Position numbers and translations under genes: made by a program. From IMG/VR virus record IMGVR_UViG_3300031565_000014, positions 8,773 to 72,772 of that record: 64,000 nucleotides of DNA; one strand, given 5' to 3'. Below, piece after piece: positions 7,130 to 44,530 of the stretch. Under the pieces are notes generated by a model. It had not been told where the DNA came from. It saw only the letters and a program-made list of their open reading frames with translations, and did not search any database. This DNA is from a virus. The stretch's first letter is position 1, and each line of letters starts with the position of its first letter.

Positions 7130-7151
7130 AACCAACATATAATCTTTTATT

Positions 7152-7186: not shown

Positions 7187-7197
7187 ATATTAGCATT

Positions 7198-8151: not shown

Positions 8152-8152
8152 A

Positions 8153-8581
8153 ATGATAAAAGTATTTATTCCAGGAAATGTACCATCATTAAAAAACAGT
8201 AAAGTAAAAACTAGTAGAGGAATATTCCCAAGTAAAACAGTTAGCAAATATTTAGCTAAACAAGGTGTTAAATCTTATAGTGTTAGTAAAAAAACAGTAG
8301 AAGACTATAAAACACGAGATAATGAATTCAGAAAGACTTCAACACCTCTTAAACAAGTAATAGAAAAAGATAAACCTAATGTTGTTTATTTTCATTTTGT
8401 AAGAGATAGTAAAAGAAGATTTGATTTTCATAACGCAGTACAAATTATAGCAGATTTGTTAGTAGCTCACGATATCATAGAAGATGATGATATGACCTGC
8501 TTTATACCAATGCCTAAACAAAAAGATGGTTTATGGTATAGTTTAGATAAAGATAATCCTGGTGTTTGGATTTATGTATAA
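8153..8581 (+). CDS. RusA-like Holliday junction resolvase
   Basis: IPGNVPSLKNS, RRFDFHN...ADLL...IEDDD, PGVWI motifs. Confidence 0.75.
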   Translation: MIKVFIPGNVPSLKNSKVKTSRGIFPSKTVSKYLAKQGVKSYSVSKKTVEDYKTRDNEFRKTSTPLKQVIEKDKPNVVYFHFVRDSKRRFDFHNAVQIIADLLVAHDIIEDDDMTCFIPMPKQKDGLWYSLDKDNPGVWIYV

Positions 8582-8606
8582 AAAAAATAAATAAAAAATA
8601 AATAAA

Positions 8607-9128
8607 ATGAGTAAAACTAATAATGCAGAAATAAGTCAGTTAATTAAATTAGACAAAGAGGAAGCTAAAAGCTTAATTTATCAAATTATTTCAGAAGACC
8701 CTAATGATGTTCAATTGGGTATTTTAAATTTAGTTAATATGGATTATTCCTGTTTAAATACTAAATCTTGGGTTAGTTACATCATATGGGTAGCTAAAGG
8801 TTACCCTATTCACATTAAAGAGGATAACAAAAATGAAATTACAAAATGTAATATAATTACAGCACTTAAGTCTATTTTAAATAAAAAACAACAAAAAGAA
8901 ATTTCTAAGTTATGTTACAATTTTGATATCACTAAAAGTTCTTCAGATGAAGATATTGCTAGTGAAATGACTGGTGAATGGTTATTAGAAAGAATTAATA
9001 ATTGTCCAGATCATCATAACATGATGTTAGAATATGTTAATGTATTTTTTAATGTAATTATCAAAGAGACTAAAAAATCAGGTTATATTCCTGAAAATGC
9101 TGAAATAAATATTACTTTAAAACAATAA
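8607..9128 (+). CDS. Hypothetical protein (173 aa)
   Basis: ORF with A-rich leader. Confidence 0.7.
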   Translation: MSKTNNAEISQLIKLDKEEAKSLIYQIISEDPNDVQLGILNLVNMDYSCLNTKSWVSYIIWVAKGYPIHIKEDNKNEITKCNIITALKSILNKKQQKEISKLCYNFDITKSSSDEDIASEMTGEWLLERINNCPDHHNMMLEYVNVFFNVIIKETKKSGYIPENAEINITLKQ

Positions 9129-9131
9129 AAT

Positions 9132-20608: not shown

Positions 20609-20617
20609 ATAATAAAT

Positions 20618-20660
20618 AAAAAAGGGGGTGTACTAGTGTTAGTATTCCCCCCTTTTTTTT
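20618..20660. terminator. Bidirectional terminator between the convergent replication and virion modules
   Basis: aaaaaaggggg-tgtactagtgttagtatt-cccccc-tttttttt. Confidence 0.85.
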
Positions 20661-20673: not shown

Positions 20674-23600
20674 TTATCTCAGATTATCAAAAGTAGCCTG
20701 ATCTCTAATACCCTTACCTGGATCAACAGCCTTACCTCTAAAGTAAAATGATTGTAATAAATGATTATAAAACTTAAAACTTTCTGCTTTCTGCCAAGCA
20801 AAAGGTCCTATATCTTTCTTATAATATGCTCTTTCGTCACCAATACCCCATCTAACTAAATCCTGAGTAAGCGTAAATAACTTATCTACAGTTGGTCCAA
20901 ATATAACAGAAGTGTTATCTTTAAAGCTAAGCATTTGACTTATACCAGAAAGAGAAGGTGAGAAAGCTTCATTCTCACTTTTAACAAGCATTAATTGATA
21001 AATTACGTGAGCATGCATCCAGCCTCCCATATTGAATGATGGTCTATTAGGATCATCAGATACCCAAGGTAGAGGTAATGGTCCTGATAAATTTCTCACT
21101 TTCTTAAATCTATCTTTATCATCATCGTCATAACCTAATAAGAACATAGATGCTGTAAGCAATCCTATAACAGCTAATTCTGCAGTTACAGCTTTAAGTG
21201 CTGATTTCTCTTCTTTAGTTAAACTATTTACTTGACCATTTCTTAAACCATTATACAATACAGCAAGGCCTACTAAAGCTTCTGCATAGTACCCTGTGTG
21301 CATATCGCCGTAAGCTAAATCAAACGTACCACCTGCTTTTCTTTCTCCAGTAACTGCTGTAGATCCTAAAGCTTTCCAATAATTAGATATTTCAGGATCT
21401 ACACTTGCACCATTAAGCCTTCTTCTATACATGGAATAAGCAAATTTTCTTAATGATATAAATGCTTTCCATCCTAAGTTTCTATCAACAAGTGGTTGTG
21501 AAAATTTAGAATAAGTACCTGCAGTACCTTCCAATATAGTCTGCATTTTAATTTTATATTCATTAAATTTTCTACCTCCTATAGCCCATTCTTTATCAAC
21601 TATATTATCTTTTAATTGTATTTGACCATCTTTAATTTCATAAGCGTCCTTAAGTTCTATTTTACTAATACTACCGTCTTCTTGAGTTTGCTCTACTTTC
21701 TGATTAATAAGTAAAGCTCCAAATAATTCAAAAGCACCTTCTTGTTCCATTAATTTTCTAAATGAAGTCATCCACGTTAAGTTAATAACGTCCCTTGTAG
21801 CGGAAGAAGTAGCGTATTCACCTAATTTAGATGAAAATCTATCTTCCATAAAATCAAATACTTCTAATAATTGAAAATTATAACTTTTAGCACCAACTTT
21901 GTATCTTTGTTTACTTATTTCAGTCATTAACTGCCAACCAAAAGCTTTACCTTTAATCATAGCAGTAGGGCTTACGTCTACACCGGCTATACCATTAATA
22001 AAATTATGATATGTTTGAGAAAATCTGTTTTTAATATCTGATGGAAAATTAAGACCTAAGTAAGATCTAGATGTTTCAGATATCATAGTATTAAGCGCCT
22101 TAATTAACCCAGGGTTATTAGCGCCCCATCCTGCAACATTTTGCCCATAAAATTCTCTTTCTGTTAAAGCTTTAATCACTTTAGCTCTTGTAGTCTCACC
22201 TTTTTTATTGAATAATCCCCAAGCTCTTTTAGATTTTTTACCGCTAATTTCTGAAGATTCTTTAGCGTTAAGTTCATCTACAAGACTTACTAAAGATTGC
22301 GCAACAGGGTTGATCTTAATAAGTTCTTTTTGCTCATTAGCAGAATTCATATATTTTAGAGTAGACTGTATAACATCTAAAGATGTGATGTCTAAACCTA
22401 TATTAAATGTACCTTTAATTACTAATGATCTAGATGGGTTCATTTGTTCTGCTAAATTTAAAAACATGCCAACATCTTCTACATCGCTTAAATCATTAGG
22501 GTCAATATCATCTAAGTTTAAACCTGCTTCTTCAATATCATCTTTTTGAGCTTTAAACATCGCTGTAAACTGCTTACCTACAGTCTTAAGCTTAAGCTTT
22601 AAGTTTTCTAATTCATTTTTAGTAAAATCTTTTGTCTGTAAAGTCTCAGTTTTATCTTTTCTAAATCTAGCTATTTCATTACCTAATTTAGCAGAATCTT
22701 CTAAGCCTTCTTGTGCTTTATAATGAGCTTTACGTAAAATTTCAAGAATCCTAAACATGTCAGGATCACTTTGTTTCATTTTTTCGTAATCTTTGTTGAT
22801 GTACCTATCCCAACCTTCTAAAGACGTATCCATGTCTTCAGCAGCTTTAGGTAGCCAATTACCCCACACATCTACTGTTTCACCTACTATACGTTTATTT
22901 TTATAATTTTCTTTAACTTCCCTAGTAAAGAATTCAAATATAGGTTGGCCAGGAATAGTCTCTATTGTATTACCTGATTCATCAAGTATTTTAATATTAC
23001 TTAAATATTTAGAATTATTAGGTACGTTATTACTCCATATAGAAGTTCTTAAATAAGCTGTAACCTCATTTTTATAAGAAATTCCTTCTATTTCCTCATC
23101 TTTTACTATTTTTTTACTAATATGAGATCTTTCAAAAAATTCTTTAAACTCCTCACTTTGATTTATGTAATATCTATATATATTCTCACTAAGAAATTTG
23201 TCAGCATTAGCTTTAGATAAACTAGCTGTTTTTAAAGTAGATTTTAAGTGTTCACCATTATCTATATCGTGAATCCAAGTATTCATAATATCTATATAAT
23301 CAGTAGATGCTTCTCTTGTTGTAATATTAGATATATTTTTAAATACTTTACCTATTGCTTTCCTTATACTTAAAGGAACTGGATTGTCTTCTTTTTTAGT
23401 GTTAAGTTCTTCTAATCTTGAAATATTTTCTTCAGTTAGATCTTCCTCCTCATATGAATTTAATATTGAATACTCTCTAGATTCAGCAGGTGTTAATCCT
23501 GATATACCTGGAATATTGTCTCTAAGATCTAATATTTTTTGATCAACGTCTTTAACTTTAGTAATTAAAGTATCATTCATCTCAGAAGCCTTAACTTCAC

Positions 23601-26600
23601 CGTTTTTATCTTTATTAGAAGTTTTTATACCTTGAATAATTTCTCTTAGTTCTTCTAGATTTTTAGGATCCTTTATACCAGCTTGTTCAAAAAGTTTAGA
23701 TAATTCGTTATATTCTCTATTTAAATCTTCAAAATATTGATCATTAGGTGATTTTCTAGTATTTTTAGATATCCAATGTTCTCTTAATCTAGCGTATTCC
23801 TCTTTCCCTTCATCTGTTGAGAGATCATAAGAAGTCTCTAAAAACTTTTCATATTCCTGAAGAGCTGTTTGAAAAGCTCCTTCTTTTTCAGTATACTTAT
23901 AAAAAACATTATTAGAATTTCTATATTTAATAAGAGCCTTAGCTTCTGCTAGTGCTACACCTGTTTTTTTATTACCATACTCGTCTACTGTAGAATATAA
24001 TCTTCTATATTCTTTCCATAAAACATTAATAAGATCTAGTTCTTTTTGTTTTTCACTAGGATCTTCTTCTTTCTCACTTCTGTCAGTATACTCTTGAATT
24101 TTCTCAAGTATTTCAGATCTTTTAATAAAAGCATCTTTACCAATATTATATATTACACCATCAATAGTTTCAGTAGTTTCTAATAAAACTTTCTTAGGTG
24201 CATAAAACTCTTTAACATATGGTTGTTGGAAAAAGTTTAATTTATGTTGCTCTAAAGCAGCTCTTGCATCTAAATATTCTCTATAAGCACTTTCTTCATT
24301 AGTTTCTTGCCATTTAGTTCTAGCTTGGAAAGCTTCATACTTAAGCTTTTCTAAACCTGTTTTATGATCTTTATATTTATCTAAAAAAGCATATACTTTT
24401 CTTTCTTCTAACTCACCAGCTTCGTTTCTAAATAATTTTGTAGCTTCATAAGTTATAGCTTGACCTATTTGATCTACTCTATCAAAATGTCTATTAGTTC
24501 TTACTTTTTCTAATAATGGAGCAAGTTCTTCTAAAATTTGATTTTGCTCTCTTTGCGTTTTAAGAGCTGCATCACTTTTAGATAGTTTAATTAATTTTGC
24601 GTAACCTGATATTAATGGGTCCTGTGAATTCATAGGAGATGTTAACCAAGAAAGCATGTTTGAGTCTTTAGACTTATTAGCTAAAATATCAGCAATCTTT
24701 TTAGCGTGATTTTCAATAGTTTTTATTTCATTCTCTAATTTTTTAATCTCACTATCTCTATTTACTTTTGAATTAGCGCTTTCATTTTTAAGTTCTTTTA
24801 TACGTTCTTTTCTATCATTGATTAATTCATCTCTTAAGCTTTTAGATTGATCTATTATAACAGAGCTAACACCTTTTTGTTGTATTTTTTTTATGTGAGA
24901 GTCTACTGATTTTAATTTACCTTGTATAACACCTAATAAATCCATTATACCTGAATTATTAGGGAAGCCTTGTTCTGTGAGTATTTCGTTGACGCTTGTT
25001 ACAAAAGTTTCATAAGACTTAATAGTTTGATAAGTAGCCATTGCTAATTGTAAGTCGGATAACTCAATTGTAGCTTGTTTTGTTAAATCAAAGAGTCTAG
25101 GAACCATAGCTTCTAACATAGTTTTAGTTTCCTCTAAACTACTTACTATAGCTTTAGTTCTTTCATGAGTTAACGCTTCTGTTGACTCAACTTTACTACG
25201 TATTTCATCATAATTATTATGAGTAATAGTTTCGTATTTACCTAACACACTAGCCATTTTCTGTAATGGATTATCACCGTATACAGTAGCTAAAAGCTCA
25301 TTAAGACCTTTTATGTCTTTATTCTTCTTTAACTCTCTTAATTGAGAAGAAGTATGTGTATAAAAAGCATCAAGCATTTGTAAAACATCAGAATTATCTA
25401 AGTTTTTAGCTAAGTCTTCAGCTAATTTATTAGATTCATCTATGGACATACGCTTATATGCAACATAGTCAGCTTTAGTTATTTCTATAGGCTCTATTCT
25501 AACATATTTAGATTTTAATATTTTAGCTAAATCTTTTACTGATGTATTTAAACCTAATTTAGAAACTGTAACATTTTTACCAAATACTCTTCTAAGCATT
25601 TGTCTAATATTATAAATTATCTTCTTAATTAAAGAAGTAAATTCAGGAGTATTATTATCTAATAAAGATTCTTCTAAAGATTTGACTAAAGCTTCATCTG
25701 TTACAGCTGGGTCATTAATATCACTATTATATTCTTCAGCAGATTCTTTTAATAAACGAGCCCCTTTTTCAGTAGAAGCTAACTCTGCAATTAGTTTATC
25801 ATAAAGAGGTTTGTTTTCATTTCTAAGAGCTGTTACAAAAGGATGAGAGAATTCGTGAAATACTGTAGACATATTCATCTGTCCTTCTACAAAGTGAACA
25901 ACACCATTATAATAAAAAGCTGGTTGACCATTGTATGGATTTTTAGCATTTTTAGTAATTTGATAAGCTTGCGTCGCACTAACTACAGAATAAGGTACCC
26001 CTAGTTTTTCTGATAATCTATCAGCAACAGCTCTAACTATTTCTAAAGAATTTTGAGATTCTACTTCAAAAGAATTAGATATAGACTCCATTGTACTAAT
26101 AGATTCTATTTCACTAATTATTCTATCAGCATCCACTAAAGGGTCAGAAGATTCAACTTGTTGCTTTAGTGGGCTTTTTTTTGACGTAGTTTCTGAAGAT
26201 TTACTAACTATTAATATGTTATTAGGATTAAATATAACATTCTGCTTTATACCGATACCTTCCTTATCATTAGTATGGAGCTCAACTGAATCAGCCTTAG
26301 TTGTATTTATAATATTACTCTCATATTTACGTAACGCACTTAACTGTGAAGGTTTAGCCAACATCTCAGGAGTAGGTTCTGTTCTATCAATAGTCTGAGC
26401 TTTTAAAAATACAGGAATAACATTAACCCCATATTTTTTAGCATGACTATATTCTTGTGAAAAAAACATACCGTTTTCTATGTCATGAGCATTGTATCTT
26501 TTTTTAGAAGGATCGAATTTATCAAAAGTACCGTTTGTACCATGAAAAAATAAAATAGGCTCACCATTAACATCTAGATACTTAGATGCTAACCCTGGTT

Positions 26601-26784
26601 GATTATCCCAGTCCCCGTACCATGACTTAAAAGAATTAGTATGAACTTGTGCATAAAATGCAAAAGCTTCATCATTAGATACCCCTAAACTTTTAAATTT
26701 TTCAAATAATAAACTAGGTTCCCCGTTTTTAGCATTAACACCTGTTAAATTACCCTGATTATCTCTAACTAAAGTACAACTCAT
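20674..26784 (-). CDS. Giant virion cargo/ejection polyvalent protein (2036 aa): N-terminal ART-like domain plus zincin metallopeptidase motif
   Basis: FKSWYGDW...FFHGT..FDKFD...GMFFS...PVFLK...VIFNPNNI; FHEFSH; coupled (TAATG) to the RNAP gene. Confidence 0.7.
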   Translation of the reverse strand: MSCTLVRDNQGNLTGVNAKNGEPSLLFEKFKSLGVSNDEAFAFYAQVHTNSFKSWYGDWDNQPGLASKYLDVNGEPILFFHGTNGTFDKFDPSKKRYNAHDIENGMFFSQEYSHAKKYGVNVIPVFLKAQTIDRTEPTPEMLAKPSQLSALRKYESNIINTTKADSVELHTNDKEGIGIKQNVIFNPNNILIVSKSSETTSKKSPLKQQVESSDPLVDADRIISEIESISTMESISNSFEVESQNSLEIVRAVADRLSEKLGVPYSVVSATQAYQITKNAKNPYNGQPAFYYNGVVHFVEGQMNMSTVFHEFSHPFVTALRNENKPLYDKLIAELASTEKGARLLKESAEEYNSDINDPAVTDEALVKSLEESLLDNNTPEFTSLIKKIIYNIRQMLRRVFGKNVTVSKLGLNTSVKDLAKILKSKYVRIEPIEITKADYVAYKRMSIDESNKLAEDLAKNLDNSDVLQMLDAFYTHTSSQLRELKKNKDIKGLNELLATVYGDNPLQKMASVLGKYETITHNNYDEIRSKVESTEALTHERTKAIVSSLEETKTMLEAMVPRLFDLTKQATIELSDLQLAMATYQTIKSYETFVTSVNEILTEQGFPNNSGIMDLLGVIQGKLKSVDSHIKKIQQKGVSSVIIDQSKSLRDELINDRKERIKELKNESANSKVNRDSEIKKLENEIKTIENHAKKIADILANKSKDSNMLSWLTSPMNSQDPLISGYAKLIKLSKSDAALKTQREQNQILEELAPLLEKVRTNRHFDRVDQIGQAITYEATKLFRNEAGELEERKVYAFLDKYKDHKTGLEKLKYEAFQARTKWQETNEESAYREYLDARAALEQHKLNFFQQPYVKEFYAPKKVLLETTETIDGVIYNIGKDAFIKRSEILEKIQEYTDRSEKEEDPSEKQKELDLINVLWKEYRRLYSTVDEYGNKKTGVALAEAKALIKYRNSNNVFYKYTEKEGAFQTALQEYEKFLETSYDLSTDEGKEEYARLREHWISKNTRKSPNDQYFEDLNREYNELSKLFEQAGIKDPKNLEELREIIQGIKTSNKDKNGEVKASEMNDTLITKVKDVDQKILDLRDNIPGISGLTPAESREYSILNSYEEEDLTEENISRLEELNTKKEDNPVPLSIRKAIGKVFKNISNITTREASTDYIDIMNTWIHDIDNGEHLKSTLKTASLSKANADKFLSENIYRYYINQSEEFKEFFERSHISKKIVKDEEIEGISYKNEVTAYLRTSIWSNNVPNNSKYLSNIKILDESGNTIETIPGQPIFEFFTREVKENYKNKRIVGETVDVWGNWLPKAAEDMDTSLEGWDRYINKDYEKMKQSDPDMFRILEILRKAHYKAQEGLEDSAKLGNEIARFRKDKTETLQTKDFTKNELENLKLKLKTVGKQFTAMFKAQKDDIEEAGLNLDDIDPNDLSDVEDVGMFLNLAEQMNPSRSLVIKGTFNIGLDITSLDVIQSTLKYMNSANEQKELIKINPVAQSLVSLVDELNAKESSEISGKKSKRAWGLFNKKGETTRAKVIKALTEREFYGQNVAGWGANNPGLIKALNTMISETSRSYLGLNFPSDIKNRFSQTYHNFINGIAGVDVSPTAMIKGKAFGWQLMTEISKQRYKVGAKSYNFQLLEVFDFMEDRFSSKLGEYATSSATRDVINLTWMTSFRKLMEQEGAFELFGALLINQKVEQTQEDGSISKIELKDAYEIKDGQIQLKDNIVDKEWAIGGRKFNEYKIKMQTILEGTAGTYSKFSQPLVDRNLGWKAFISLRKFAYSMYRRRLNGASVDPEISNYWKALGSTAVTGERKAGGTFDLAYGDMHTGYYAEALVGLAVLYNGLRNGQVNSLTKEEKSALKAVTAELAVIGLLTASMFLLGYDDDDKDRFKKVRNLSGPLPLPWVSDDPNRPSFNMGGWMHAHVIYQLMLVKSENEAFSPSLSGISQMLSFKDNTSVIFGPTVDKLFTLTQDLVRWGIGDERAYYKKDIGPFAWQKAESFKFYNHLLQSFYFRGKAVDPGKGIRDQATFDNLR

Positions 26785-35700: not shown

Positions 35701-38700
35701 TTGTTATTATATTTATCTAATAAACTATTATAAGCATTAGCATAAGCGTTATTTCTTATTGCACTACTTTTGAAAAACTGAGTAGTAAACTTATTAGTGT
35801 CGTTCATCTTATTTTTTAAGTCAAGATATTCAGACATCATAGAGTCAAACATTGACATTACTTGTTTAGTTTCATCTTTACTAAGATTAATATTAGCACT
35901 TGATGGTGCTATTATTTTACCTTTGTTGAGTTTACCAAACATCATGTTACTAACACTAGCATTATATTCGTTTAAATTACCAACTCTAAGTTTATCATAA
36001 AGTTCTTTAACAGAATTTTGTGTGTTAATGGTGCTATAGTCTATTGCTTTAGTCCCTTTAAAAAAGTTTTTTAAGAAGTTTAAAATTCTTTTAAATATAT
36101 TATTAGTTGCAGTTCTACCTTTAAAGACTTTAGTACCATCTGATAACATGTAAGATCTAAAATCTTCAGCTAAGAATTCTTCTATTTCTAAATAACTAGC
36201 ATCTTTAAATTTAACTTGTTGTCCATTATGATTAGTAAAACTACCGGATAACTTACTTACTTCATTGTATAATTTAGTTTTATCTCCAACAGTTAAAAAT
36301 AATTGAGAAAAAGCATGCCATGATTCATGATATAAATCTGTAAAATTACTTCCATTAAATAATGTTATTCCAGCAGAGCTAAATGTAGCGTATGCGTCAG
36401 AATTAACTATATTAAATGCTTGTTTGTAACCTAGTAGTTTATTAATATCTGAAGATTCATACCATTTTTGAGCCTTCTCTATTTGTTCTTTAGTTACACC
36501 TGAGTCTAATTTTTTAGATCTCATTAATTCATCAGGGTCTACTTCCGTCTCTGTAAAAGGGTTAGGTGTAAATTTAGTTTTAGCTTTAACTTCATTAGTT
36601 TGTTGTGTTGGTTTAGATAACTCTCCCCCTTTATATGGAGCAACTCTATTCTTCTTTTTTAATTCCGTTGCTATAAGTTCTAATAATTGTTTTTTCGCAA
36701 CACTCATGGAAGCTCCCATACCTCTAAGCATATCTTCAACACCTTTTTCTCCAGCTTCTTTTAATCTTTTTCTTTCAGCATTAAGTATATCTAATTTCTT
36801 TTTATAATCAGCATATTCAGCAGTTTTACTTAAATCTACTGATATTGGATAGAAAGTTTTACCGTCTACATCATCTATAGACAATTCTATTACTCCATTA
36901 TTATCTTTTCTAATAGTATTTTGGTGTGTATTAAAGACTATGCTTTTTCCTCCTTTTGATATATCAGCTTGTTTATAACTTTTACCATAGCCTGACATGT
37001 CTATTGGAGAATATATTATTTCAACCTCATTAGTTTGTTGTGCTGTCGAAGTCGTTAGAATAGGGCCTGCAGTAGTACCATAAGGAGTTGTCTGGGTCAT
37101 AGTACCCGCAGTCTCATTTATTTCTTTAGTTTCTTCTTGAATAGCTTGATCTGAAGGAGTAAATTTAAAATATGGGTGTTTTCTAAAAATAACCTTTTTA
37201 CCCTTATAATTAAGTGTTTCATTAGTAGTATAAGCGTTTTGAATTATGAAGTCATCATAACTCATTGTTTCCATAGTTATCTCGTTATTTTCTACTTTAA
37301 TAGGAGCACTAATATTTTTCCCTATAAAACTACTTAATATATTAATTCTATTTTTTTGATTTTTAGTTACCCCGTCTACTACTTCCCCATCACCTAAAGG
37401 AGAATTAAAAAAACTATCTTTCAAGTATTCAGGTGTAACATTAATTTCAGCAACATTTTTGCCTTTAACATTAGTGACTAGTCTAATGTTTGTAGGAAGA
37501 ACTTCTTTTGAATTATAGTCGTATTTAAAATATAATTGATCACCAACTAATGTAGTTAATATCTCATGTCTTTCTTTTGCATTAAGTACTTTGTTTTTAC
37601 CTAATTTTCTTGGATTAGAAAGAGCTGGGTTAAAAAGTAATTCTGAAATTATATTTTGTTGAGCTTGTGTAAGTTTATTTTGTCTTACGGTAATATTATC
37701 TTGCTTATTAGGATTAGTTAACGTAATCTGGTAAACACCACGTTTAACTTCTGTAAGAGCATATCCTTGATATGTTTCAGAAAAATCAACATCCTTAAGT
37801 TGTGTTTTACTTTTTTCTCCTAAGTTTACTATAGGAAATCCTTCACTTAAATATTCTATGTCTAGTAAAATAGCTTTACCGGACTCTAAAAGCTTATTTT
37901 GGAGCTCTACAAGCTTGTTATATTCATCTTGTATATATTTAGATGCTTCTTTACTATTTATCTTCTTAGAATGCGCTATTTCTTTTGGCGTTTGTATAGT
38001 AGATGCTCTTTGTCTAACACCATCAACTATTACGTCAAATTCTTTACCTTCTTTTATTTCTTTTTTTAATGAAGTATGTGTCCAGTTACCGTCGGTATCT
38101 TTAACAGGTTTTCTTGTTTTAAAATAAATAGCCTTGTAGCCTTCTTTTTTTTCTTTTGAAATATTGTAGTTTTCATCAAAATATAAAGTATTACCTTCAT
38201 TATCTGTAACTACTACATTTGCTGCTTTATTAAATTCTTCAGGATTCTTTTCTTTAAAGTCTTTATCTTGCTCATAAAGATCATTACTTTTTTCAAGTTC
38301 TTCTGATGTTACCATCTTTAATCTGAAACCTGTATGACCATTATAAGTTAATGTTGTAAAATCAGGATTACCTGGGAATTCAGAACTAAGCTTTCTTAAT
38401 AAACCATAAGCGTAAAATCCTTCACTATTTACATTGCCATATGAAGCTTCCCAAAAGTAAGTAACATTAGGTGTTTCAGGTCTATCAGAAGCTTTAGTAA
38501 CTTCTTTAGGTGGTTCAACTGCTTCAACTCTTTTATTAGTTGGTACAGCTGCATCTATCTTACTTCTATTAACAGCAATTTGTACTGGAGTTAATGTAGA
38601 CTCTAAGTACTCTACTATTTTAGTAGGATCTTGAAATAAAGTAGCTGTTTCACTAATCTCATTAAAGTTATCTTTAAAATAAGATAGAAACTCACTATCA

Positions 38701-38909
38701 TCAACCATTGCTTGAAGAGCATACATAGGCATAATATGTACAGCTTCTAAGGCAAGTTCATGACCTACTTCTTCTGCTAAACTATTATACTGATTTTGTA
38801 ATAAACTCTTTAAGTTTAAGAGTTGATTATTATCAACTAAAGTTTGTAATTCTTTATACACACTAGCGTATACGTATTCTAAAGCTTCATCTCCTAATGC
38901 ACAAATCAT
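26784..38909 (-). CDS. Virion-packaged single-chain two-barrel RNA polymerase (crAss-like) with accessory domains (4041 aa)
   Basis: RIPTQGLNSM...KTGSDFDVDK catalytic loop (~31915-31940), DAQGY, TQMRK, NGWVD..KD motifs; several HExxH modules. Confidence 0.9.
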   Translation of the reverse strand: MICALGDEALEYVYASVYKELQTLVDNNQLLNLKSLLQNQYNSLAEEVGHELALEAVHIMPMYALQAMVDDSEFLSYFKDNFNEISETATLFQDPTKIVEYLESTLTPVQIAVNRSKIDAAVPTNKRVEAVEPPKEVTKASDRPETPNVTYFWEASYGNVNSEGFYAYGLLRKLSSEFPGNPDFTTLTYNGHTGFRLKMVTSEELEKSNDLYEQDKDFKEKNPEEFNKAANVVVTDNEGNTLYFDENYNISKEKKEGYKAIYFKTRKPVKDTDGNWTHTSLKKEIKEGKEFDVIVDGVRQRASTIQTPKEIAHSKKINSKEASKYIQDEYNKLVELQNKLLESGKAILLDIEYLSEGFPIVNLGEKSKTQLKDVDFSETYQGYALTEVKRGVYQITLTNPNKQDNITVRQNKLTQAQQNIISELLFNPALSNPRKLGKNKVLNAKERHEILTTLVGDQLYFKYDYNSKEVLPTNIRLVTNVKGKNVAEINVTPEYLKDSFFNSPLGDGEVVDGVTKNQKNRINILSSFIGKNISAPIKVENNEITMETMSYDDFIIQNAYTTNETLNYKGKKVIFRKHPYFKFTPSDQAIQEETKEINETAGTMTQTTPYGTTAGPILTTSTAQQTNEVEIIYSPIDMSGYGKSYKQADISKGGKSIVFNTHQNTIRKDNNGVIELSIDDVDGKTFYPISVDLSKTAEYADYKKKLDILNAERKRLKEAGEKGVEDMLRGMGASMSVAKKQLLELIATELKKKNRVAPYKGGELSKPTQQTNEVKAKTKFTPNPFTETEVDPDELMRSKKLDSGVTKEQIEKAQKWYESSDINKLLGYKQAFNIVNSDAYATFSSAGITLFNGSNFTDLYHESWHAFSQLFLTVGDKTKLYNEVSKLSGSFTNHNGQQVKFKDASYLEIEEFLAEDFRSYMLSDGTKVFKGRTATNNIFKRILNFLKNFFKGTKAIDYSTINTQNSVKELYDKLRVGNLNEYNASVSNMMFGKLNKGKIIAPSSANINLSKDETKQVMSMFDSMMSEYLDLKNKMNDTNKFTTQFFKSSAIRNNAYANAYNSLLDKYNNKNYPEDATGRTQEIFEQVLNNFKLIADHHLANSIFGNNISSKESKKEKLAENIDEEVADKDLGVELLSKSNVDPSNYRTDIIDYLMSTLPFVDSEGNFRLDRFGVPMLADSFQVSTLLTNLLTDTRGIDAMYEVLDSYAKSTKPYSNIVNILLARLGNTKDINISTAATWFEFHKSFGLNSTPVSVTLNRKHKNDDGIVTHDLIHKHNDAIVDKTVNNLDNAFKTADPSKHMIIKDPRYGNILDLEAIYDKYRKFSPQHGEHKVDFIEGTRIVGFLTDIGFDLSDIGYNSELAKELREATQGKGDSKLNLNFLLRSLVKSHENNLKKKEKAEKEGTDYEPKMYRSLSEIFSDDNKHLKSIAKIIAKNSPTVSVAMVPDASNNPVYTNKTFSTQTVMINLLNSVEHVDQLNGKHQTVDTIEELHHLGPDYAWASASMTKRAMFDTSGKRRKDSSIESKELLGVSNTAESVHENGEKTNKLTQGDKLIENMNYLLLKGASEQMRYGTKSTATAVVIRNVNDSNQDKYLYIDLENFKEANLSIANEQFTAMVIPFIDAEIARMIEFNKKDSPYSNISNSSNFYENGKDFVLFDKILSDETKETIKNYYNISDPSTEIVTLEQSMNSGVLDNSELAAIRDMIYNDLSLFMSKAVDLDMNDFNKMPYISDNLRQKIELRTGAKGHVAKNLAVKAFSYNYVLRNLDMLGLLYGDPAQFNMAKEDFHKRIGAIASGGVQFSNDVSTNEFVNTSVGRPLAESKGFTKSTSWDGKLRTSVIADNNVRSTAYDAMFKTLTEDFGYSKVDTERRLEAYLKMTEGDAQGYMSLDTYRTLSIISGKWDWNKQETLFQKIVNKEDINTDDVVKYFPPRKYQYYGPLANNLDPASNRSISLQAFHKYSLLPLIPGVFGENADKLHDQMMEQGIDYTIFESASKINSVTSNGKPDVIYKDFDNSRELKETLPFTVNEIFLAYLKDQTDVNEKYKGKTTLPTQMRKLVTIGMFDGGDSTSEENKVLAEKYQSLLDALVAKNKEDLIEELGLEYTTNEDGVKTFSKKGLENLTNAIQTELSERDLGDNELEFIQVDKNGNLKVDLSFSPSAEKIETALVSLANKRIVKPKVAGEPLIQASSSILTDNDMPRNATKAEKEEYGTNGLKFYSYDPKTGTKAMQVKISMQGKFKHLLLRADVLKKAKDENISTLKALNLLIEDKEWISENKEILTMVGVRIPTQGLNSMDVMEIAEFLPTHAGNIIIAPSEIVAKTGSDFDVDKMFIMMPSLMNLDGKTHKYKYDKSIKDSTQSLKNNLSELIEKQKELYETLYNEVTPEVIAAKSEIYNEFKESISDLNSKVKLAKEELELLKLRSVTENVNDEIAYVENNIEKLNDHITNLLSDRNELFELDATEKTQKIKEDIANTKEEINKVKLNLANSSAAAIQTSLVDVLTDILLKPDNFANLITSIDGDTVKNKANELGKFMSYNSSQSLIDQDHAKKGIHAFQILLSSYNLDKHRKNNEGMATLGQAAIDLTFKSEFNRIGFHLNPYMMLDTKDKDGEIIKTQSDIALNLLLPHNVAKNGGIDLSRLKDTEGEDIFYILNLLINGWVDIEKDAWIFNVQGNKKVEPTLVMLVMAGVPFDKAADFVSNPYVKEYVESQNYYESLFVEAHEGSNFTQGNPKIKALNDILKKYDSDNFKTEKLKNPAYDTEFLKQIQDRRKELIGENAIKTSSLVSINVESLSEKDKKDAFGAFLHFIELQNIAEDLTQLKLHMNYDTTVSRTLYDIHQKEANIPSLRTGKIYAEEFVDSLLEGSPIGTFNISDFQSDLWSQVLILRNDKTLNDKIKSITSDPGFQTTLRETFGKGNQAKYVEAYRNNLIKYLLQNSLLESRSKDFYKSLATKTSLTKKEISNLKYGAAVLDKVLYISKDKIREQYKRKDFTNASEYFKLGLAPVPLFTFTHEGKNSEQEYENFVIEREYLRHSMPINEVMGTPMFEEYKNSPEEADNNFLHLLPGDNIENKINLLTYERIIRDMALSNIFNINSLFSSKTNTVADQFLRITKMYPELAEEYAVFTQFKELPTLNSDVKNIGPITSKPKGELVERVSENIKELQNHKDIFVRDFFTKLPMYAFLQSGHNTKSMNSILRYMPQGDFVQMLSNQINDVKVTTKILNSYTAKFNKVNRVDNKIRYKIQDYTVPNEKDDHISQINVIEISAYKGVPVKYSNNIRSKQNTRIAAKYSEGVILLDKELLLEGFSKKAWTSPRNLFETIHGEKINSKADALAPDTFTTYEEWQNFVIEHEYQHTLYTRKDFDNEFPGSTLGHYESVINQRALEALSTAEVESIPTTLVEDNNNYTVVPLAVENAFQIVRPDFTEEVENSVPKAELFESTPELANEVYEAAGFKSNLPSVLDYKIGKIYNTQGKEIFAGVVDGQVYINKELLDKYSNKEVLDNQLPILNTVLKNLNVYDRLVNGSKEQLVRFLVEHEKAHLDFEREGRKFKNEEVEEVYANGKALITIGILKSKDFDISGSNEAVIRLSKYFPTKEEYIDDMVELVAKAMDNATVDLSTITGYEVDVFKGSLWGKKLQTSSMDNFFFLQGKDGYPKNKGELKEAISKDIARNIPRSIKEKYWKEILKSLPDDEKALLSNWAYYNNIKFYTSQYGKPYFDFNKEKYPELNKEDKEKYTNWDSFISGIIGSFTGAGSDLWFANNLLADEEGSIIDWYKNLTPEKLDENIKNLSRAMAFKSMVVSSFERGSSISALDQNARKVESIKEAYYEIKQRTEVSPPQLTSTSLSQEITPQQKQEAQEKFQEYVNATGRQDIEGFKDFVNKPKQQATEVDKVTDEQIIKNNQSTTFVTEEATSFNNTYPMHIKNMGESLGEENFDYNKTLIDNIVSDLKELTEKGNPVSFFENYGVSLKNSAPKTYKYLNEQLAENFRLSNDPSNETKEVMPNILPREISDEVIQKGIQNEIQDAMDSLNNCKK
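36588..37042 (-). repeat. 20-bp direct repeats (19/20 identical) flanking an in-frame 435-bp segment
   Basis: aacttcattagtttgttgtg at 36588 and aacctcattagtttgttgtg at 37023; both encode QQTNEV. Confidence 0.8.
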
Positions 38910-41900
38910 TACTTACAATTATTTTTAAGGGCGTTAATAAAACCAGATTTAAAATCTTTAGAATCTTGCTTAATTTTTGCCAAAGCTTTATCTTTATCTA
39001 ATTTTTTAGAATTCACTTGCAAAGTGGCAATCATTGCTTTAACAGAATCTTTACTTAACATAGATTTTTCTTTTTTAACAGCTGTTTTAGTAACAGTGCT
39101 TGTTTTCTTAACTTGCTTAGTTTCACCATCAGCATCTTTTATTGTAGTACTATCTTTATCTTGCTTAACTACTTTTTGTTGTTTACCTTCTACTTCTACA
39201 AAAGATCCTTCGGCTACTTCTCCAACAGGTCCTGGTTTATTTATAGAATTTTTATAATCAGCAATTACTTCATCGACTAAGTTATTTATAAAAATAGTGA
39301 AATTTGCTGTACCTCCCAGTAATTTTTCTAATTTATTTTCTTTACTCTTGAGTAATTTCTCAATTTTTGTGTAAACTTTATCTCTTAAAGCATTATCTTT
39401 TATTGTATGTATAGAAGGAATTTTAGGTATCACATCCTTCATTACATTTTTTACATATTTACTTGTAGAAACAATGTCTGCTTCATCTAAAATTTCATCT
39501 GTAATCTCATTTGTAATTTCTTGAACTATATAAACATGTGACTTTCCTTGTCCTTTAGACCAAGCTTTTAATTGTGGCGTTTCTTCCGTAATTATACTGG
39601 TATTATATACTTCTGTAGAATCTCTATAACCTACATAGGATATTTTAAATAATTTATTACCATGTTTAAATATTTTAGTCTGAGCTACACCAATACCTTT
39701 AATTTTATCTGTATAAGATTTAATAACAAAACCTGTATCTTTAAGTGAAGCTAATGCTTCTGTTTCTTGCTCGTTTAGTGGACTTTCTTCAAGATCTATT
39801 GCAATATTAGGGTCTATTCCAGTTGGTATTTTTTGACCTTTAGCTGGAATTATACTATCATCTTCAACTTTCTTTTTAACAGTTTCTTTATCTACATAAC
39901 CTTTTACAGCTTTTTTAAGTAAAGATGTTATTGGTGATCTTTTTAGTTTAATTAATCCGGGAACACCATCAACAGTACTTTCTGGAGTAACTTGTTCAAA
40001 TCCTTCAGCAGATGTAACATTTACTGTATCACCATCCATTTCATAATTAGAAACTAAAGTAAAGATGTTAATACTACTTGATTCTATTCCTTCAGAAGAT
40101 CTTAGTAAATCCTCATATATTGTTTGTTGGTCAGACCATCCTTTAACTCTAGGTTCAAATTCACCTTCGTTAAATATGTATTTAGCTGCTGTAGTTTGAT
40201 TCCCTGCTTTAAGTGTTTTAAAATCTATAATAGCTATTGTACCATCTGGAGCAACAGCTACTAAATCTAAAGTACCACCAACACCGTCAAGACCTGTAGC
40301 TTTCTTTTCAGCGTCTGTAAATTCCATATAAGTAAATACATCATTAGCTACAAATTTATAACCTTGTTTTTCTAGATTATCTTTAAGTGTAAAGAAAGCA
40401 TCTACCATTATCTCAAATTGCTCTTGCTCTATGTTTACTTTAAATCTACTAGATTTAGCATTCATCTCATTAGCTGTTTCTAGATAATTTTCTCTGTTTG
40501 CTTTAACTTCTTCTTTTGTTTTACCGTCAAATATATCTCTACCAACTATATCAGCTAAGTTACCTCTAGCAGCTCCTTGAGCCATATTGTCATTAGATTC
40601 AGTTGTTGTGCCATTTACTCTATCTTTAAAATTAGACTGTCTTTCTAATTTAAGTTTACCATCTGTATAAATAGATGTTTGTGACTTACTTCCACCATCT
40701 TGTTGTGTTGATTTTAGTTCTGCTTTTAATTCTGTAGCTTTTTTCCAAGCTTCTAATAGTTTAAAAAATTCAGCTTTATTATTTCTCCAAACAGCTTTTA
40801 TAAGAGTAGTGCCTTGCATTTTCATATATTCAGAAACAGATTGTTCATCTATTCCCCAATCTTCTACAATATTTTGAATATCTGATAATAAAAGATTTTC
40901 TTTTCCGTTTCTATCTAAATTAGTATTTGAAAATTCATCTATTGTTTTTGATATTTCCTCACTTTCAAGAAAAATCATTTCTCTATCTATAAGTGCTTCT
41001 AGTTCAACTTTTTTAGCTTCAGTTTCATTAGATTGTTGTGTTGGTTTAGAAATAGTTGTTGTAACTGTTTTAAAGTTTTTATTCTTCTCTTGTAACGCAG
41101 ATAGCTTATCTAAAGTTTCTTGTTGCTTATCTACTTTAACGGCTTCCTCGTCAACTACTTCTTTAACTTTAGCTTTTTCAGCATCTTCTTTAGCTTGAGT
41201 TTCACCTAGTATTTTATATTTAGATTTAAGATTCTGTATAACTTTAGGATTTTTTTCAAATAAGATATCTACATCACCATAAGCTTCTTGTTCATCTTTG
41301 TCTAATGCTGTAAAGGCATCAACTATTTCATTAAAGAAATCTATAGATAAATCATTACCCCCTTCTGATTGAGGAAATATAAAAGTAGCATATTTAAATA
41401 TATTAGGATATTTCTCTTGATCAATTGCGTCCTCTATTTTACCTTCACCCTCTTCTTTAGTAATCTCTTCTTGAATAGGTTTAAGTATACCTTTAGCAAG
41501 ATATTGTATTACTTCCGCAACAACTGTTGGGTTTTGAACAGGCTTTAATGTGTGAGCATCAAAAATTTCATTAGGAAATCTTTGTTCACTTTCTTCATCA
41601 AATATTTTAGCAAGATCTTCTGGTAATAAAAATACACCAAATTTATCTAGAAGTTCGTTGGCTAACTTATTCATTTCCTCTGACGTATAATGAGTCTCAA
41701 GAACTTCTTTTAAATAATCTTTACGATTAGCCCATTTATCTCTATAAGATTGTTCTAATGCTGTAAAGTGATTCATGAAACCTTTAGGATCTGCTAATAC
41801 ATTAATAGATTTAGATAAATTGTTACCATCTTCTCTTAAAGCATAAAGATCTTTATATTTAACAAACATTTCATCAAAGTTTGTTGCATCAAATATTTCT

Positions 41901-44530
41901 CCGTTAACTTCAGCTAATGTTTTAAAATAATTTTTAAGATCTAAGTATGTATCTCTAAGACTACCATCTCTTTCAAAATGTTTTGTTCTTATGTAAGCTT
42001 CTTGATCTTTTAATTCTTTAAGTTTATTTTGATATTTTTCTGTTAAATCAAGAGACTCATATTCACTTATTTCTTTTTGTAATTCTTTTAAATATTCTTT
42101 TAGATTCTCACTTTCTTCTTTAGTTTTTTCAGTATTAACATTAACTGTTTCAAATAATCTTTTTAAAGATCTTGCTTGCTGTCTTTTATTTTTTAATAAT
42201 TTAACTTCTTCTGGTGTTTTATTTTCAGCGTAACTTAATGCTTCTATTTCTGCATTTAATAATGATAATTGTTGAGCCATTCCTTCTACAGAAAATGTTG
42301 CTTGAACATCTTGTGGAGAAATTTTAGTTTTACCACCATAACTTACAGATTTAAAAACACTAAACATATTATTATTTAGTAGCTCATCTCCTAATTTAGT
42401 AATTCTACTAATTGTGTTGTCAAAGTCTTCTTGAAGAAAAGTGACATCATCAATAGCAGCTTCCCAAGCATTATAACCTATTACTTGAGCAATGTCTTCT
42501 GATGAAGGTTCTTTTAACTTAGATATATTAGGGTTAAAAGGATTAATTTTTTCTAATTTTTTTCTAGTTTGTTGTATCTTGTGAACTCTATTTAAATCAT
42601 TATATATACTATTTCTAATAGACTCACCTGATTGTCCTTTAACTCCAAACGCACTTACTAACTCATCATCAGATAAGCTAGCTAACTCATTATAAATACT
42701 TTTAAAATGTTCGAATTTCTGAGGGCTTTTAATTATATCTAAAGCTCTTGCAATGTCTTTAGCACTTTTAGCATCCTGATAAGCTTTTTGGTCACCAGTC
42801 ATTTCAGCTTCATCCATCTTACTTTGACTTGTACTTTGATTTCTTAATGCTTCTATGTTTGAATTAAAAAAATCTTGAGGGTTATTCTTAAGCCAATCAT
42901 TTAAAATATCTGCTGTTTTTTCAGCATTTTTAATTATTTGTTCTTTTTTTTCTTTTTTTTCTGCAGCTTTTTTCTTAAATATTTTTGCGTCTGCATAGTC
43001 AAAAGTTTTAATACCTGTTTTCTGTGCTAACGTTATAGGTGCTCCCATAAGAAAACCTGACATAAAAACCTCAAAACCTTGACCATTCGCCATAGATTTA
43101 ATTCCATCTGCCATATAATTCCAATAACCACCTTCTAAATTATCTGAATATAAATCTTTTGCATAAGATGTAGCGCCTTCACTTATAGACTCTTGGAAAT
43201 ATTCTTGAATACCTTCTGAAAAATTTGCTTTAGAATATTTAAGTGCACCTAATGCTGTTGCCTTTAAACCGGCTTTAGGGTTTTTTAAGGTAGCTTTACT
43301 AAATAACTTATTTGTACCATCTTTAACTACTTTAACAGCCTGTTGTGTAGCATCTTTAAGACCTTCTTTGTTAAGGATCATCTTGTAACCTTGGCCTTGA
43401 AATAAATCTGTAGAAACACCTCCTTTAAATTTTTTAAAAATAGGAGCAAAACTAACTTTGTTGGTCATATAGATTAAACCTAAGTTAGAGTAAAAAGACA
43501 TATCTTGTGCAGCAAGTGCGGCATTACTTATTTTCTCCATGTCATCTACACCGGGAGCCTTACCATTTTGAGTTATATATTCATCATATAAATCATCTTT
43601 AACAGAATTAAAAGCCATACCTGCTTCTAACTGAGATTCTGACACAACCATGTTAAGCTCTCTTACATCCCTATAGAAGTTAGCAGCTGTTTTACTTGTT
43701 TTAGCTAAATTGGTAAGATTATCCATCTTATCCCAATTACGTAATGTATTTGTAGTTCCTGACAAAGGATTTAAAAAATCACCAACTTTATTAGCATTTT
43801 TATAAAAATTATTAGCTTTAGACATATTGCTAACATCTTTAACCTTATCAAAAGATTTAACAGCTTTAGTATAATCAAACATATTACTAAAAGCTTTACC
43901 CAGCTTACCAGCATTGTAACCTGTTCTAACACCTGCAGCAGGAGCAGCTCCTCCAAATGTTACCGCGGAGCCTATAGCCATAATAGCTTCTTCTGCAAAT
44001 ATTTCAGCAATCATACCTACAGTATAACCTGAGTTTAAATATAGATTAGTTGTAAAACCACCAATACCACCTTTAGATGATGAACCAATATTAGCAGCTC
44101 GTTCATACTCTCTTGCTTCACTTAAGTCTGGAGAAAAATCTCCTCCTAACATTCTCCCCATTGACTTTATGTTAGACATAGCGCCTATTTTTGCCAAAGT
44201 ACCCCACTGACCACTTGCTCTCGACATTTCATCAAGCCAAGAACTATTAGCATTATACACTGCTTCATTATCTCTATAAGGAGAGAAACCTAACTTATTA
44301 AATTTAGGATGATTATAATATCTTTCATAATTAAAACCCTTACTACTAGCGTCAAAATATTGAGCACCCATTTGAGAAAAAGGATCTTTAACACCAGAGC
44401 TTACATTTCTTAAATCATTATAAGAGTCGAGCGGTGTTGAGTTAGCATCATCTGCAAAATTAATATTAGCATAATCCATGTTGTTTATCTTAAGTGGATC
44501 ACCTAAGTTAAGTTTACTATAATCAGGCAT
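38909..44530 (-). CDS. Giant virion cargo/ejection protein (1873 aa) with N-terminal hydrophobic segments and an internal PD-(D/E)xK nuclease domain
   Basis: Gly/Ala-rich TM-like segments; ARGN...GGTLDLVAVAPDGTIAIIDFKT...WSDQQTIY. Confidence 0.7.
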   Translation of the reverse strand: MPDYSKLNLGDPLKINNMDYANINFADDANSTPLDSYNDLRNVSSGVKDPFSQMGAQYFDASSKGFNYERYYNHPKFNKLGFSPYRDNEAVYNANSSWLDEMSRASGQWGTLAKIGAMSNIKSMGRMLGGDFSPDLSEAREYERAANIGSSSKGGIGGFTTNLYLNSGYTVGMIAEIFAEEAIMAIGSAVTFGGAAPAAGVRTGYNAGKLGKAFSNMFDYTKAVKSFDKVKDVSNMSKANNFYKNANKVGDFLNPLSGTTNTLRNWDKMDNLTNLAKTSKTAANFYRDVRELNMVVSESQLEAGMAFNSVKDDLYDEYITQNGKAPGVDDMEKISNAALAAQDMSFYSNLGLIYMTNKVSFAPIFKKFKGGVSTDLFQGQGYKMILNKEGLKDATQQAVKVVKDGTNKLFSKATLKNPKAGLKATALGALKYSKANFSEGIQEYFQESISEGATSYAKDLYSDNLEGGYWNYMADGIKSMANGQGFEVFMSGFLMGAPITLAQKTGIKTFDYADAKIFKKKAAEKKEKKEQIIKNAEKTADILNDWLKNNPQDFFNSNIEALRNQSTSQSKMDEAEMTGDQKAYQDAKSAKDIARALDIIKSPQKFEHFKSIYNELASLSDDELVSAFGVKGQSGESIRNSIYNDLNRVHKIQQTRKKLEKINPFNPNISKLKEPSSEDIAQVIGYNAWEAAIDDVTFLQEDFDNTISRITKLGDELLNNNMFSVFKSVSYGGKTKISPQDVQATFSVEGMAQQLSLLNAEIEALSYAENKTPEEVKLLKNKRQQARSLKRLFETVNVNTEKTKEESENLKEYLKELQKEISEYESLDLTEKYQNKLKELKDQEAYIRTKHFERDGSLRDTYLDLKNYFKTLAEVNGEIFDATNFDEMFVKYKDLYALREDGNNLSKSINVLADPKGFMNHFTALEQSYRDKWANRKDYLKEVLETHYTSEEMNKLANELLDKFGVFLLPEDLAKIFDEESEQRFPNEIFDAHTLKPVQNPTVVAEVIQYLAKGILKPIQEEITKEEGEGKIEDAIDQEKYPNIFKYATFIFPQSEGGNDLSIDFFNEIVDAFTALDKDEQEAYGDVDILFEKNPKVIQNLKSKYKILGETQAKEDAEKAKVKEVVDEEAVKVDKQQETLDKLSALQEKNKNFKTVTTTISKPTQQSNETEAKKVELEALIDREMIFLESEEISKTIDEFSNTNLDRNGKENLLLSDIQNIVEDWGIDEQSVSEYMKMQGTTLIKAVWRNNKAEFFKLLEAWKKATELKAELKSTQQDGGSKSQTSIYTDGKLKLERQSNFKDRVNGTTTESNDNMAQGAARGNLADIVGRDIFDGKTKEEVKANRENYLETANEMNAKSSRFKVNIEQEQFEIMVDAFFTLKDNLEKQGYKFVANDVFTYMEFTDAEKKATGLDGVGGTLDLVAVAPDGTIAIIDFKTLKAGNQTTAAKYIFNEGEFEPRVKGWSDQQTIYEDLLRSSEGIESSSINIFTLVSNYEMDGDTVNVTSAEGFEQVTPESTVDGVPGLIKLKRSPITSLLKKAVKGYVDKETVKKKVEDDSIIPAKGQKIPTGIDPNIAIDLEESPLNEQETEALASLKDTGFVIKSYTDKIKGIGVAQTKIFKHGNKLFKISYVGYRDSTEVYNTSIITEETPQLKAWSKGQGKSHVYIVQEITNEITDEILDEADIVSTSKYVKNVMKDVIPKIPSIHTIKDNALRDKVYTKIEKLLKSKENKLEKLLGGTANFTIFINNLVDEVIADYKNSINKPGPVGEVAEGSFVEVEGKQQKVVKQDKDSTTIKDADGETKQVKKTSTVTKTAVKKEKSMLSKDSVKAMIATLQVNSKKLDKDKALAKIKQDSKDFKSGFINALKNNCK
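40700..41050 (-). repeat. 11-bp direct repeats flanking an in-frame 333-bp segment; one end matches the repeat in the RNAP gene
   Basis: ttgttgtgttg at 40700 and 41033; 41024-41050 matches 36591-36617 at 26/27. Confidence 0.75.

Follow-up and report, generated by a model that had tools for sequence, protein, structure and literature searches.

Facing terminal cysteines in the giant cargo proteins of crAss-like phages and a possible disulfide-tied chain around the virion RNA polymerase

The crAss-like phages are the most abundant viruses of the human gut. Cultured Crassvirales have a run of giant genes placed after the tail and cargo genes, and the cargo proteins of phi14:2 (record notes) and crAss001 (Bayfield 2023, a source that, like the phi14:2 preprint of Drobysheva et al., PMC11445570, PMC13434306 and PMC6899712, is cited here from part of its text) have been found in virions by mass spectrometry (MS). 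The Schitoviridae, or N4-like phages, likewise pack a giant RNA polymerase in the virion together with two smaller ejection proteins; the polymerase is expelled into the host, and in the ejected proteins, as in those described below, cysteine is suppressed. Their polymerase is of the mitochondrial/T7-like kind, not of the two-barrel kind (PMC11445570, PMC13434306), and the suppression of cysteine has been explained by the passage through the periplasm (PMC11445570). Here we analyse a window of 64,000 nucleotides (nt; positions 8,773 to 72,772 of IMG/VR record IMGVR_UViG_3300031565_000014), which belongs to a 72.8-kb viral contig with an estimated completeness of 61% and in which the giant-gene run stands as it does in the cultured phages. 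The last three proteins of the run, which we call A, B and C, share with phi14:2 gp67-gp66-gp65 and with crAss001 gp47-gp50-gp49 the polymerase homology, the catalytic DxDxD motif and a pattern of one, two and one terminal cysteines. These cysteines, which face each other across the gene junctions, are the subject of this report.

Four cysteines at two gene junctions

The giant open reading frames (ORFs) lie on the minus strand of the window, the last three being joined by one-base TAATG overlaps. With ORFs called under translation table 11, the lengths of A, B and C are 1873, 4041 and 2036 amino acids (aa), 7950 aa in total. A, the first member of the proposed chain, takes the position of phi14:2 gp67. 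The three genes and their junctions are as follows.

38909..44530, minus strand: protein A, 1873 aa, first member of the proposed chain, in the position of phi14:2 gp67; a single cysteine, residue 1872, in the C-terminal NNCK
38915..38917, minus strand: TGT codon of the C-terminal cysteine of A (..NNCK, stop)
38907..38911, minus strand: TAATG stop-start overlap of A and B, read from the sequence
38901..38903, minus strand: TGT codon of the N-terminal cysteine of B (MIC..)
26784..38909, minus strand: protein B, 4041 aa, virion RNA polymerase by homology, middle member of the proposed chain; cysteines 3 and 4039 only, beginning MIC and ending NNCKK
26793..26795, minus strand: TGT codon of the C-terminal cysteine of B (..NNCKK, stop)
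26782..26786, minus strand: TAATG stop-start overlap of B and C, read from the sequence
26776..26778, minus strand: TGT codon of the N-terminal cysteine of C (MSC..)
20674..26784, minus strand: protein C, 2036 aa, last member of the proposed chain; a single cysteine, residue 3, beginning MSC

The preliminary description of this locus, made by manual reading, had reported only four cysteines in the 7950 aa, all of them facing a junction. A script count upholds this: every one of the four stands no more than three residues from a junction, and the free N-terminus of A and the free C-terminus of C carry none. The positions it gave for the codons at the A/B junction (38915-38917 and 38901-38903) are correct. 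In 23 other ORFs of the window, a background that leaves out the three giants upstream of A (two cysteines each), there are 127 cysteines in 8039 aa (1.58%). At this rate about 126 would be expected in A, B and C, and a count of four or fewer has a probability of about 1e-48; for four randomly placed cysteines, the chance of falling one within three residues of each junction-facing end is about 5e-13. The TAATG overlaps had also been described correctly at both junctions. The near-identical DNA reported around them, in contrast, amounts to only about 11+6 bases and is not a DNA element; the likeness arises because the same residues (N-N-C-K, stop, M-x-C) are encoded in AT-rich codons. In relatives, both the residues and the DNA that flank the junction cysteines vary freely.

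Conservation, chain breaks and predicted docking across Crassvirales

A protein search with B gave 139 matches, 120 of them listed, and the 119 other than B itself are 2437-6633 aa long and mostly 25-35% identical to it. Counting as terminal any cysteine within the first 8 or the last 10 residues, we found among the matches listed an N-terminal cysteine in 108 of the 119 homologues, a C-terminal one in 116 and both in 106, while 96 carry these two and no other; internal cysteines number 21 in 427,534 aa. All 13 non-self homologues of A have one cysteine each, within the last 7 residues. For C three non-self homologues were found, two with a single cysteine at residue 3 and the third, a weak match with 4% coverage, with three internal ones. 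In an alignment of 36 full-length B homologues cysteine 3 is invariant, and the column of the C-terminal cysteine reaches at least 90%. Across 50 loci the cysteine is the sole invariant column both in the last 300 aa of A (13% mean identity) and in the first 300 aa of B (18%).

When viral contigs were scanned with the B alignment, 493 relatives were confirmed; 79 loci, from the best 80 of the 493, were kept, and dereplication at 70% B identity left 67, the window included. We tabulated at these loci all adjacent ORF pairs on the same strand, each ORF at least 100 aa long and the gap at most 150 nt, irrespective of homology. Both facing cysteines are present at 123 junctions, neither at 165 and only one at 18 (odds ratio 254, p=2e-62). 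Twelve of the 18 discordant junctions fall in ordinary cysteine-rich genes. At the other six a small gene lies between the chain partners, in loci L031 (12361-13050), L058 (19219-19812) and L033 (17370-17726), and the next giant ORF still begins MxxC; these inserts are two GIY-YIG homing endonucleases and one DUF5856 protein. The inserted small genes break the adjacency, not the cysteine rule. The junction cysteines are encoded by 209 TGT and 35 TGC codons, and the partner genes are spaced from -10 to +86 nt.

Following facing cysteines outward from B at each locus delimits chains whose members have 286 cysteines in 456,057 aa, 249 of them terminal and 37 internal (0.008%), compared with 0.62% in the other ORFs of the same loci. 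The N-terminal cysteine stands at residue 3-6, that is, with 2-5 residues ahead of it; the C-terminal one mostly occupies positions -1 to -8 from the end, and the overhang beyond it is 0-10 residues. Thirty-five chains are complete (27 with three members, six with four, two with two). Their inner members always have a cysteine at both ends and their outer ends are always bare. Among the inner members are link modules of 165-655 aa, those of 165-209 aa having sat in apparent intergenic gaps. The pattern amounts to a valence rule, under which n proteins carry n-1 facing cysteine pairs and have bare outer ends. We also observed that the total length of a complete chain is 7533 aa on average (standard deviation 806, range 6087-9545), whatever the number of pieces. 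Such near-constancy would fit a fixed cargo volume.

The points at which chains are broken or continuous provide additional clues. Locus L039 encodes two proteins, of 583 and 1852 aa, that align collinearly with residues 1-563 and 594-2348 of the 2352-aa C protein which L006 has in one piece; the L006 protein has no cysteine at residues 520-640, and L039 has a facing pair at the break. A pair confined to the break is likewise found when the 396- and 2232-aa proteins of L058 are compared with the unsplit C protein of L030, and when B and the 655-aa link of L028 are compared with the unsplit B protein of L030. The converse is seen at all four dereplicated loci in which B has no N-terminal cysteine (L055, L064, L078 and L081): the upstream neighbour also has no C-terminal cysteine, and B has some 900-1200 extra N-terminal residues. 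In L078 and L081 this extra N-terminus is homologous to A, including the A of the window (BLAST, E 5e-26 and 2e-10), and a hidden Markov model (HMM) of 44 A proteins recognised the A part in one of the four presumed A+B fusions (L081). Searches with two HMMs, one for the C-terminal 250 aa of A and one for the N-terminal 300 aa of B, found no remnant of a junction inside the fusions. On the whole, the facing cysteine pair behaves like a stand-in for a peptide bond, present at breaks and absent where the polypeptide is continuous. A relic protease site at the junction was considered and rejected, the fused forms having no cysteine there.

The pattern fits phi14:2 and eleven other named Crassvirales. 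Fifteen junctions in 11 named phages carry the facing pair, that of crAss002 only with a revised start. Phi14:2 (Steigviridae) has the pure form, with four cysteines in the 5398 aa of g065-g067: the last residue of g067, residues 3 and 2179 of the 2180 of g066, and residue 3 of g065. The other four sampled Steigviridae (crAss001, DAC15, cr85_1 and cr108_1) keep every junction pair. In three of them (crAss001, DAC15 and cr85_1) the pattern holds even though the gene for A is encoded on the opposite strand, at a distance from the 5' end of the polymerase gene; in crAss001 a single cysteine stands at -3 in gp47 and at 5 in gp49, and gp50 has cysteines at 5 and -9 as well as an internal one. Among the Suoliviridae, cr118_1, cr4_1 and cr6_1 have an A+B fusion with a C-terminal cysteine at -4, and the next protein starts with MIC or MIIC; in cr10_1 the partner lies past the end of the record. 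In the Intestiviridae LMMB and cr271_1, an A-like protein ending ..SCM precedes a B+C fusion that starts with MSC and lacks a C-terminal cysteine. The annotated start of crAss002 gp33 (L091 13645-13750) puts the cysteine at residue 35; residues 33-35 read M-S-C, which suggests that this start is probably misplaced, the family rule favouring Met33.

Two further observations were made in these phages. In cr108_1 (NC_055878.1, L088 15807-16096) the polymerase gene is annotated as two coding sequences split by about 290 nt within the catalytic motif (..AKAGSD / ..YDIDK..); the break looks like an intron and matches a review remark on disrupted RNA polymerase genes. The late-block genes of cr4_1 (L084, gp26) and cr6_1 (L092, gp36) contain 38 and 57 in-frame table-11 stops, respectively, which points to stop-codon recoding in these Suoliviridae.

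We also modelled the A-B junction as a complex, pairing the C-terminal 300 aa of A with the N-terminal 300 aa of B and using a 50-row alignment for each. The pair scored 0.63 (0.63, 0.61 and 0.66 in three runs) against 0.09 for the best of three controls; in a benchmark, 58 of 80 solved complexes attained the score mark, as did 2 of 110 mismatched pairs. In the model the predicted local distance difference test (pLDDT) is 60 for the partner and 50-57 for the other chain, and at least 28% of contacts recur between runs. The predicted interface sets residues 270-299 of the A segment, including Cys 299, against residues 2-22 and 43-70 of B, including Cys 3. The model thus supports docking of the C-terminal tail of A on the N-terminal helices of B.

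The preliminary description had linked A, B and C in this order through their terminal cysteines, and it had pointed to orthologues and to modelling of the terminal peptides as the places to look. The linkage of neighbours is strongly supported by valence, splits, fusions, non-adjacent genes and docking. Orthologues, including phi14:2 gp67/gp66/gp65, do keep the C-terminal cysteine and the N-terminal MxC with few or no internal cysteines, and the one modelled terminal pair (A-B) is predicted to dock. Its statement that cysteines occur only at the junctions proved true of the window lineage and of phi14:2, and does not extend to the gut Suoliviridae and Intestiviridae. Among the phages sampled, this strict form is limited to the window lineage and phi14:2.

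Encoded proteins and neighbouring genes

Residues 1755-2718 of B match phi14:2 g066, annotated as 'Catalytic RNA polymerase subunit', with 23.8% identity (tblastn, E 4e-23); crAss001 gp50 is also matched by tblastn, and the region matched in g066 likewise matches PDB entry 6vr4_A (phmmer, E 8e-18). In the alignment of 36 full-length homologues G2325, D2327, D2329, D2331 and K2332 are invariant. On this sequence evidence B is a crAss-type two-barrel virion RNA polymerase of the phi14:2 gp66 type. Packaging in the virion, known from MS for phi14:2 and crAss001, is supported for this uncultured contig by the late-block position of the gene. Further features of the chain genes and of the region past C are the following.

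31917..31931, minus strand: catalytic DxDxD of B, within GSDFDVDK (residues 2325-2332), from motif and alignment
36315..36329, minus strand: N-terminal HExxH of B (H861, E862, H865), resembling a zincin by motif alone
26314..26574, minus strand: ART-PolyVal domain (ADP-ribosyltransferase of polyvalent proteins), C residues 71-157, Pfam PF18760, E 1.2e-11 (46 bits; cut-off 31.2)
20617..20652, minus strand: inverted repeat of a G-run and a C-run followed by a T-run, directly past the C stop, found by eye from the sequence

The columns of H861, E862 and H865 are invariant in the same 36 homologues, and the HExxH region of B has no Pfam or PHROG family match. Additional HExxH motifs occur at residues 3355 and 3541 (28833-28847 and 28275-28289, minus strand) in the C-terminal extension of B, which is without counterpart in most homologues. 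Homologues of B carry helicase, AlkB and DUF1768 (YbiA-like) domains. C, which has one hydrophobic segment (residues 1865-1884), is by its domain match a polyvalent protein with an ADP-ribosyltransferase domain. Protein A has no Pfam or PHROG match and protein B no PHROG match; in the phage collection, neither megablast with 36000-44530 nor tblastn with protein A gave a match, and the viral-contig scan with the single A sequence found no relative.

The inverted repeat past C resembles a terminator that closes the late block on the minus strand; a consensus terminator scan did not call this hairpin, the loop of which exceeds the size allowed in the scan. On the plus strand of the window lies a replication module that includes genes for a DnaB-like helicase, a primase and a PD-(D/E)XK nuclease. 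Just upstream of A, on the minus strand, lie three giants of 1152, 800 and 1531 aa (44536-47994, 48079-50481 and 50487-55082) for which no family match was found. Each has exactly two cysteines, close together (C127/C133, C222/C225 and C1267/C1272). In one of them, the 'MATY..' protein, the CX5C motif recurs at the same position in L009, L033, L063 and L077, and the protein is cysteine-free in L016, L018, L020, L039, L049 and L061. A comparable lone pair is present in crAss001 gp45 (C390/C398) and in phi14:2 g069 (C369/C378).

Candidate interchain disulfides, other explanations and known systems

In this context, we put forward that the facing cysteine pairs are probably head-to-tail interchain disulfides that tie the cargo proteins into a chain. 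Selection would have stripped A, B and C of cysteine save one at each partner-facing end. The C-terminal tail of one protein would dock on the N-terminal helices of the next, and the disulfide would then form when the particle has reached an oxidising milieu. A head-to-tail tie with minimal overhang would give an unbranched product, as passage through the channel needs: here a concatemer A-S-S-B-S-S-C of some 7,500 residues, which would be equivalent to the single polyprotein of some relatives, with 1:1:1 content and fixed order. With overhangs of 0-10 residues it could thread the portal and the tail channel as one chain, and the loss of the other cysteines would prevent knots, the same argument having been made for N4-type ejection proteins (PMC11445570). 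Cargo is thought to be partly unfolded while it passes the channel (Bayfield 2023). The reducing cytoplasm of the host would finally open the bridges and thereby release the polymerase and its companion enzymes with no need of a protease. On balance we lean towards the view that Crassvirales deliver their polymerase in this way, as a redox-cleavable pseudo-polyprotein, one disulfide-tied thread of about 7,500 residues in which a cysteine pair replaces the peptide bond.

Several points weigh against this proposal. These phages assemble in a reducing cytoplasm, and the guts in which many of them live are anoxic. We infer the disulfide itself, as well as its timing, its role in packaging or ejection and the release by reduction; the support for the bond is indirect and consists of the covariation with chain breaks and of the docking, which places both cysteines in the interface. 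This docking covers the A-B junction only, at a modest pLDDT of 50-60, and the calibration of the score is only rough for custom alignments. The chain walk follows facing cysteines and is hence circular, describing the pattern rather than testing it, a circularity of which the junction table is free. The 79-locus sample leans to the lineage of the window, and the N-terminal cysteine positions depend on a first-ATG start rule. Some bridging cysteines lie further from the end (-9 in crAss001 gp50, -10 in L043, -11 in cr10_1), and the extra B N-terminus of L055 and L064 is without A similarity detected by BLAST or HMM. The gut Suoliviridae and Intestiviridae keep the junction pair and have up to 14 internal cysteines (cr271_1 gp48), which could pair otherwise. 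The first cargo protein of Intestiviridae has a lone C-terminal cysteine (LMMB QIN93289 at -2, L090 2730-5315; crAss002 gp30 at -8, L091 2950-4623), and the next protein has no N-terminal one.

In an alternative scenario the facing cysteines do join neighbours, and the purpose is regulation: the tether to A and C would keep the polymerase, ADP-ribosyltransferase and peptidase modules inactive in the virion, and its reduction in the host cytoplasm would be the switch. The same comparative evidence applies here, the data do not separate regulation from threading, and the phi14:2 preprint, in the part available, calls the activation of gp66, by proteolysis or otherwise, not known. The modules of 165-209 aa with a cysteine at both ends nevertheless read more easily as links than as regulators, and the fused forms would require a different switch, so that we consider regulation as the primary role unlikely. 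We regard it as improbable that the two cysteines bind a metal ion, or form some bridge other than a disulfide, at the docked interface and merely mark the contact. Both cysteines do lie in the predicted interface, and a few C-terminal motifs have a histidine beside the cysteine (..NHCF..); however, one cysteine per side provides only two ligands, the cysteine is the sole invariant column with no other conserved residue near the junction, and, placed at the extreme ends, the cysteines would be better suited to a flexible covalent tie than to a metal site within a fold.

The terminal cysteines might instead pair elsewhere, in A-A or C-C homodimers, by self-closure of B or by anchoring to capsid or portal cysteines. 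The thiol partner cannot be named from sequence alone, several copies of each cargo protein may sit in the virion (Bayfield 2023), and the lone terminal cysteine mentioned above shows that one may occur in an Intestiviridae cargo protein with no facing partner. Yet the outer ends of chains are bare, N- and C-terminal cysteines are equal in number and facing, a split creates two cysteines at once, fusion goes with the absence of both, and the tail of A is predicted to dock on the head of B; such pairings are in our view quite improbable. Very improbable is a thioester chemistry (protein splicing or native chemical ligation) that would weld the pieces and discard the short overhangs. Split-intein halves span tens of residues or more, and the chain ends here are far shorter. 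A cysteine near a C-terminus beside one near the next N-terminus does formally resemble the reactants, but overhangs of 0-10 and 2-5 residues leave no space for an intein fold, the flanks are unconserved, and phi14:2 g065-g067 are annotated from MS/MS proteomics as three products. Least probable of all are a chance origin and a signal at the nucleotide level by which the TAATG overlaps would serve translational coupling. Both junctions of the window are indeed such overlaps with similar DNA, but the junction association (p=2e-62) argues against chance, and a coupling signal is difficult to reconcile with the range of spacings, the use of both cysteine codons and a rule that holds for opposite-strand partners. 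On these three grounds we rule out that the pattern is caused by translational coupling or by a junction element in the DNA.

If the facing pairs are interchain disulfides, the n-1 pair rule would predict, for any crAss-like genome, which proteins make up the cargo chain, in what order they stand and which of their start codons are the true ones. A covalent tie of the cargo would also provide a mechanism for fixed stoichiometry, ordered delivery and protease-free release, and it touches on how giant proteins pass a narrow tail and how the polymerase is switched on (phi14:2 preprint; PMC13434306). As an annotation aid, the cysteine rule marks chain genes and flags fusions, splits, inserted homing endonucleases and wrong starts. 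A full-text literature search, outside which the journal version of the phi14:2 paper and the supplements lie, found no statement of the terminal-cysteine pattern. The words cysteine and disulfide do not occur in the 2023 Crassvirales review, nor in the available parts of the phi14:2 preprint (Drobysheva et al.) and of the 2026 N4 paper (PMC13434306). The crAss001 virion does hold disulfides, in tail and portal-vertex proteins, the only ones for which the available part of the atlas reports them (Bayfield 2023).

Compared with the cultured Crassvirales, the window has a B protein of 4041 aa, nearly double the 2180 aa of phi14:2 gp66, and carries in it the HExxH module that the phi14:2 preprint puts in gp65; the ART-PolyVal domain of C is a further difference from the phi14:2 and crAss001 block. 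The N4-type ejection proteins are essentially cysteine-free and thus have no terminal pairs, whereas the proteins of the window combine zero internal cysteines with four conserved terminal ones; no linkage between the ejected proteins has been proposed for the N4-like phages. With the polyvalent proteins (Iyer et al. 2017, PMC5512222) this family shares many enzymatic modules that are delivered with the DNA and shuffled between neighbouring polypeptides; the types represented here and in homologues are ART, putative metallopeptidase, helicase, AlkB and YbiA-like. The modules of polyvalent proteins are contained in one polypeptide, for which the paper proposes autoproteolytic release with no occurrence of the words cysteine or disulfide (PMC5512222); here they are in separate translation products with facing terminal cysteines. 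A likeness in working only, with no sequence relation, exists to the disulfide-linked di-chain exotoxins, which have one interchain disulfide whose reduction is needed for action (PMC6899712); nothing described here is a toxin for humans, animals or crop plants. In these toxins, however, one polypeptide is nicked within a disulfide loop, whereas the cargo proteins are translated separately and would be tied to each other by their ends.

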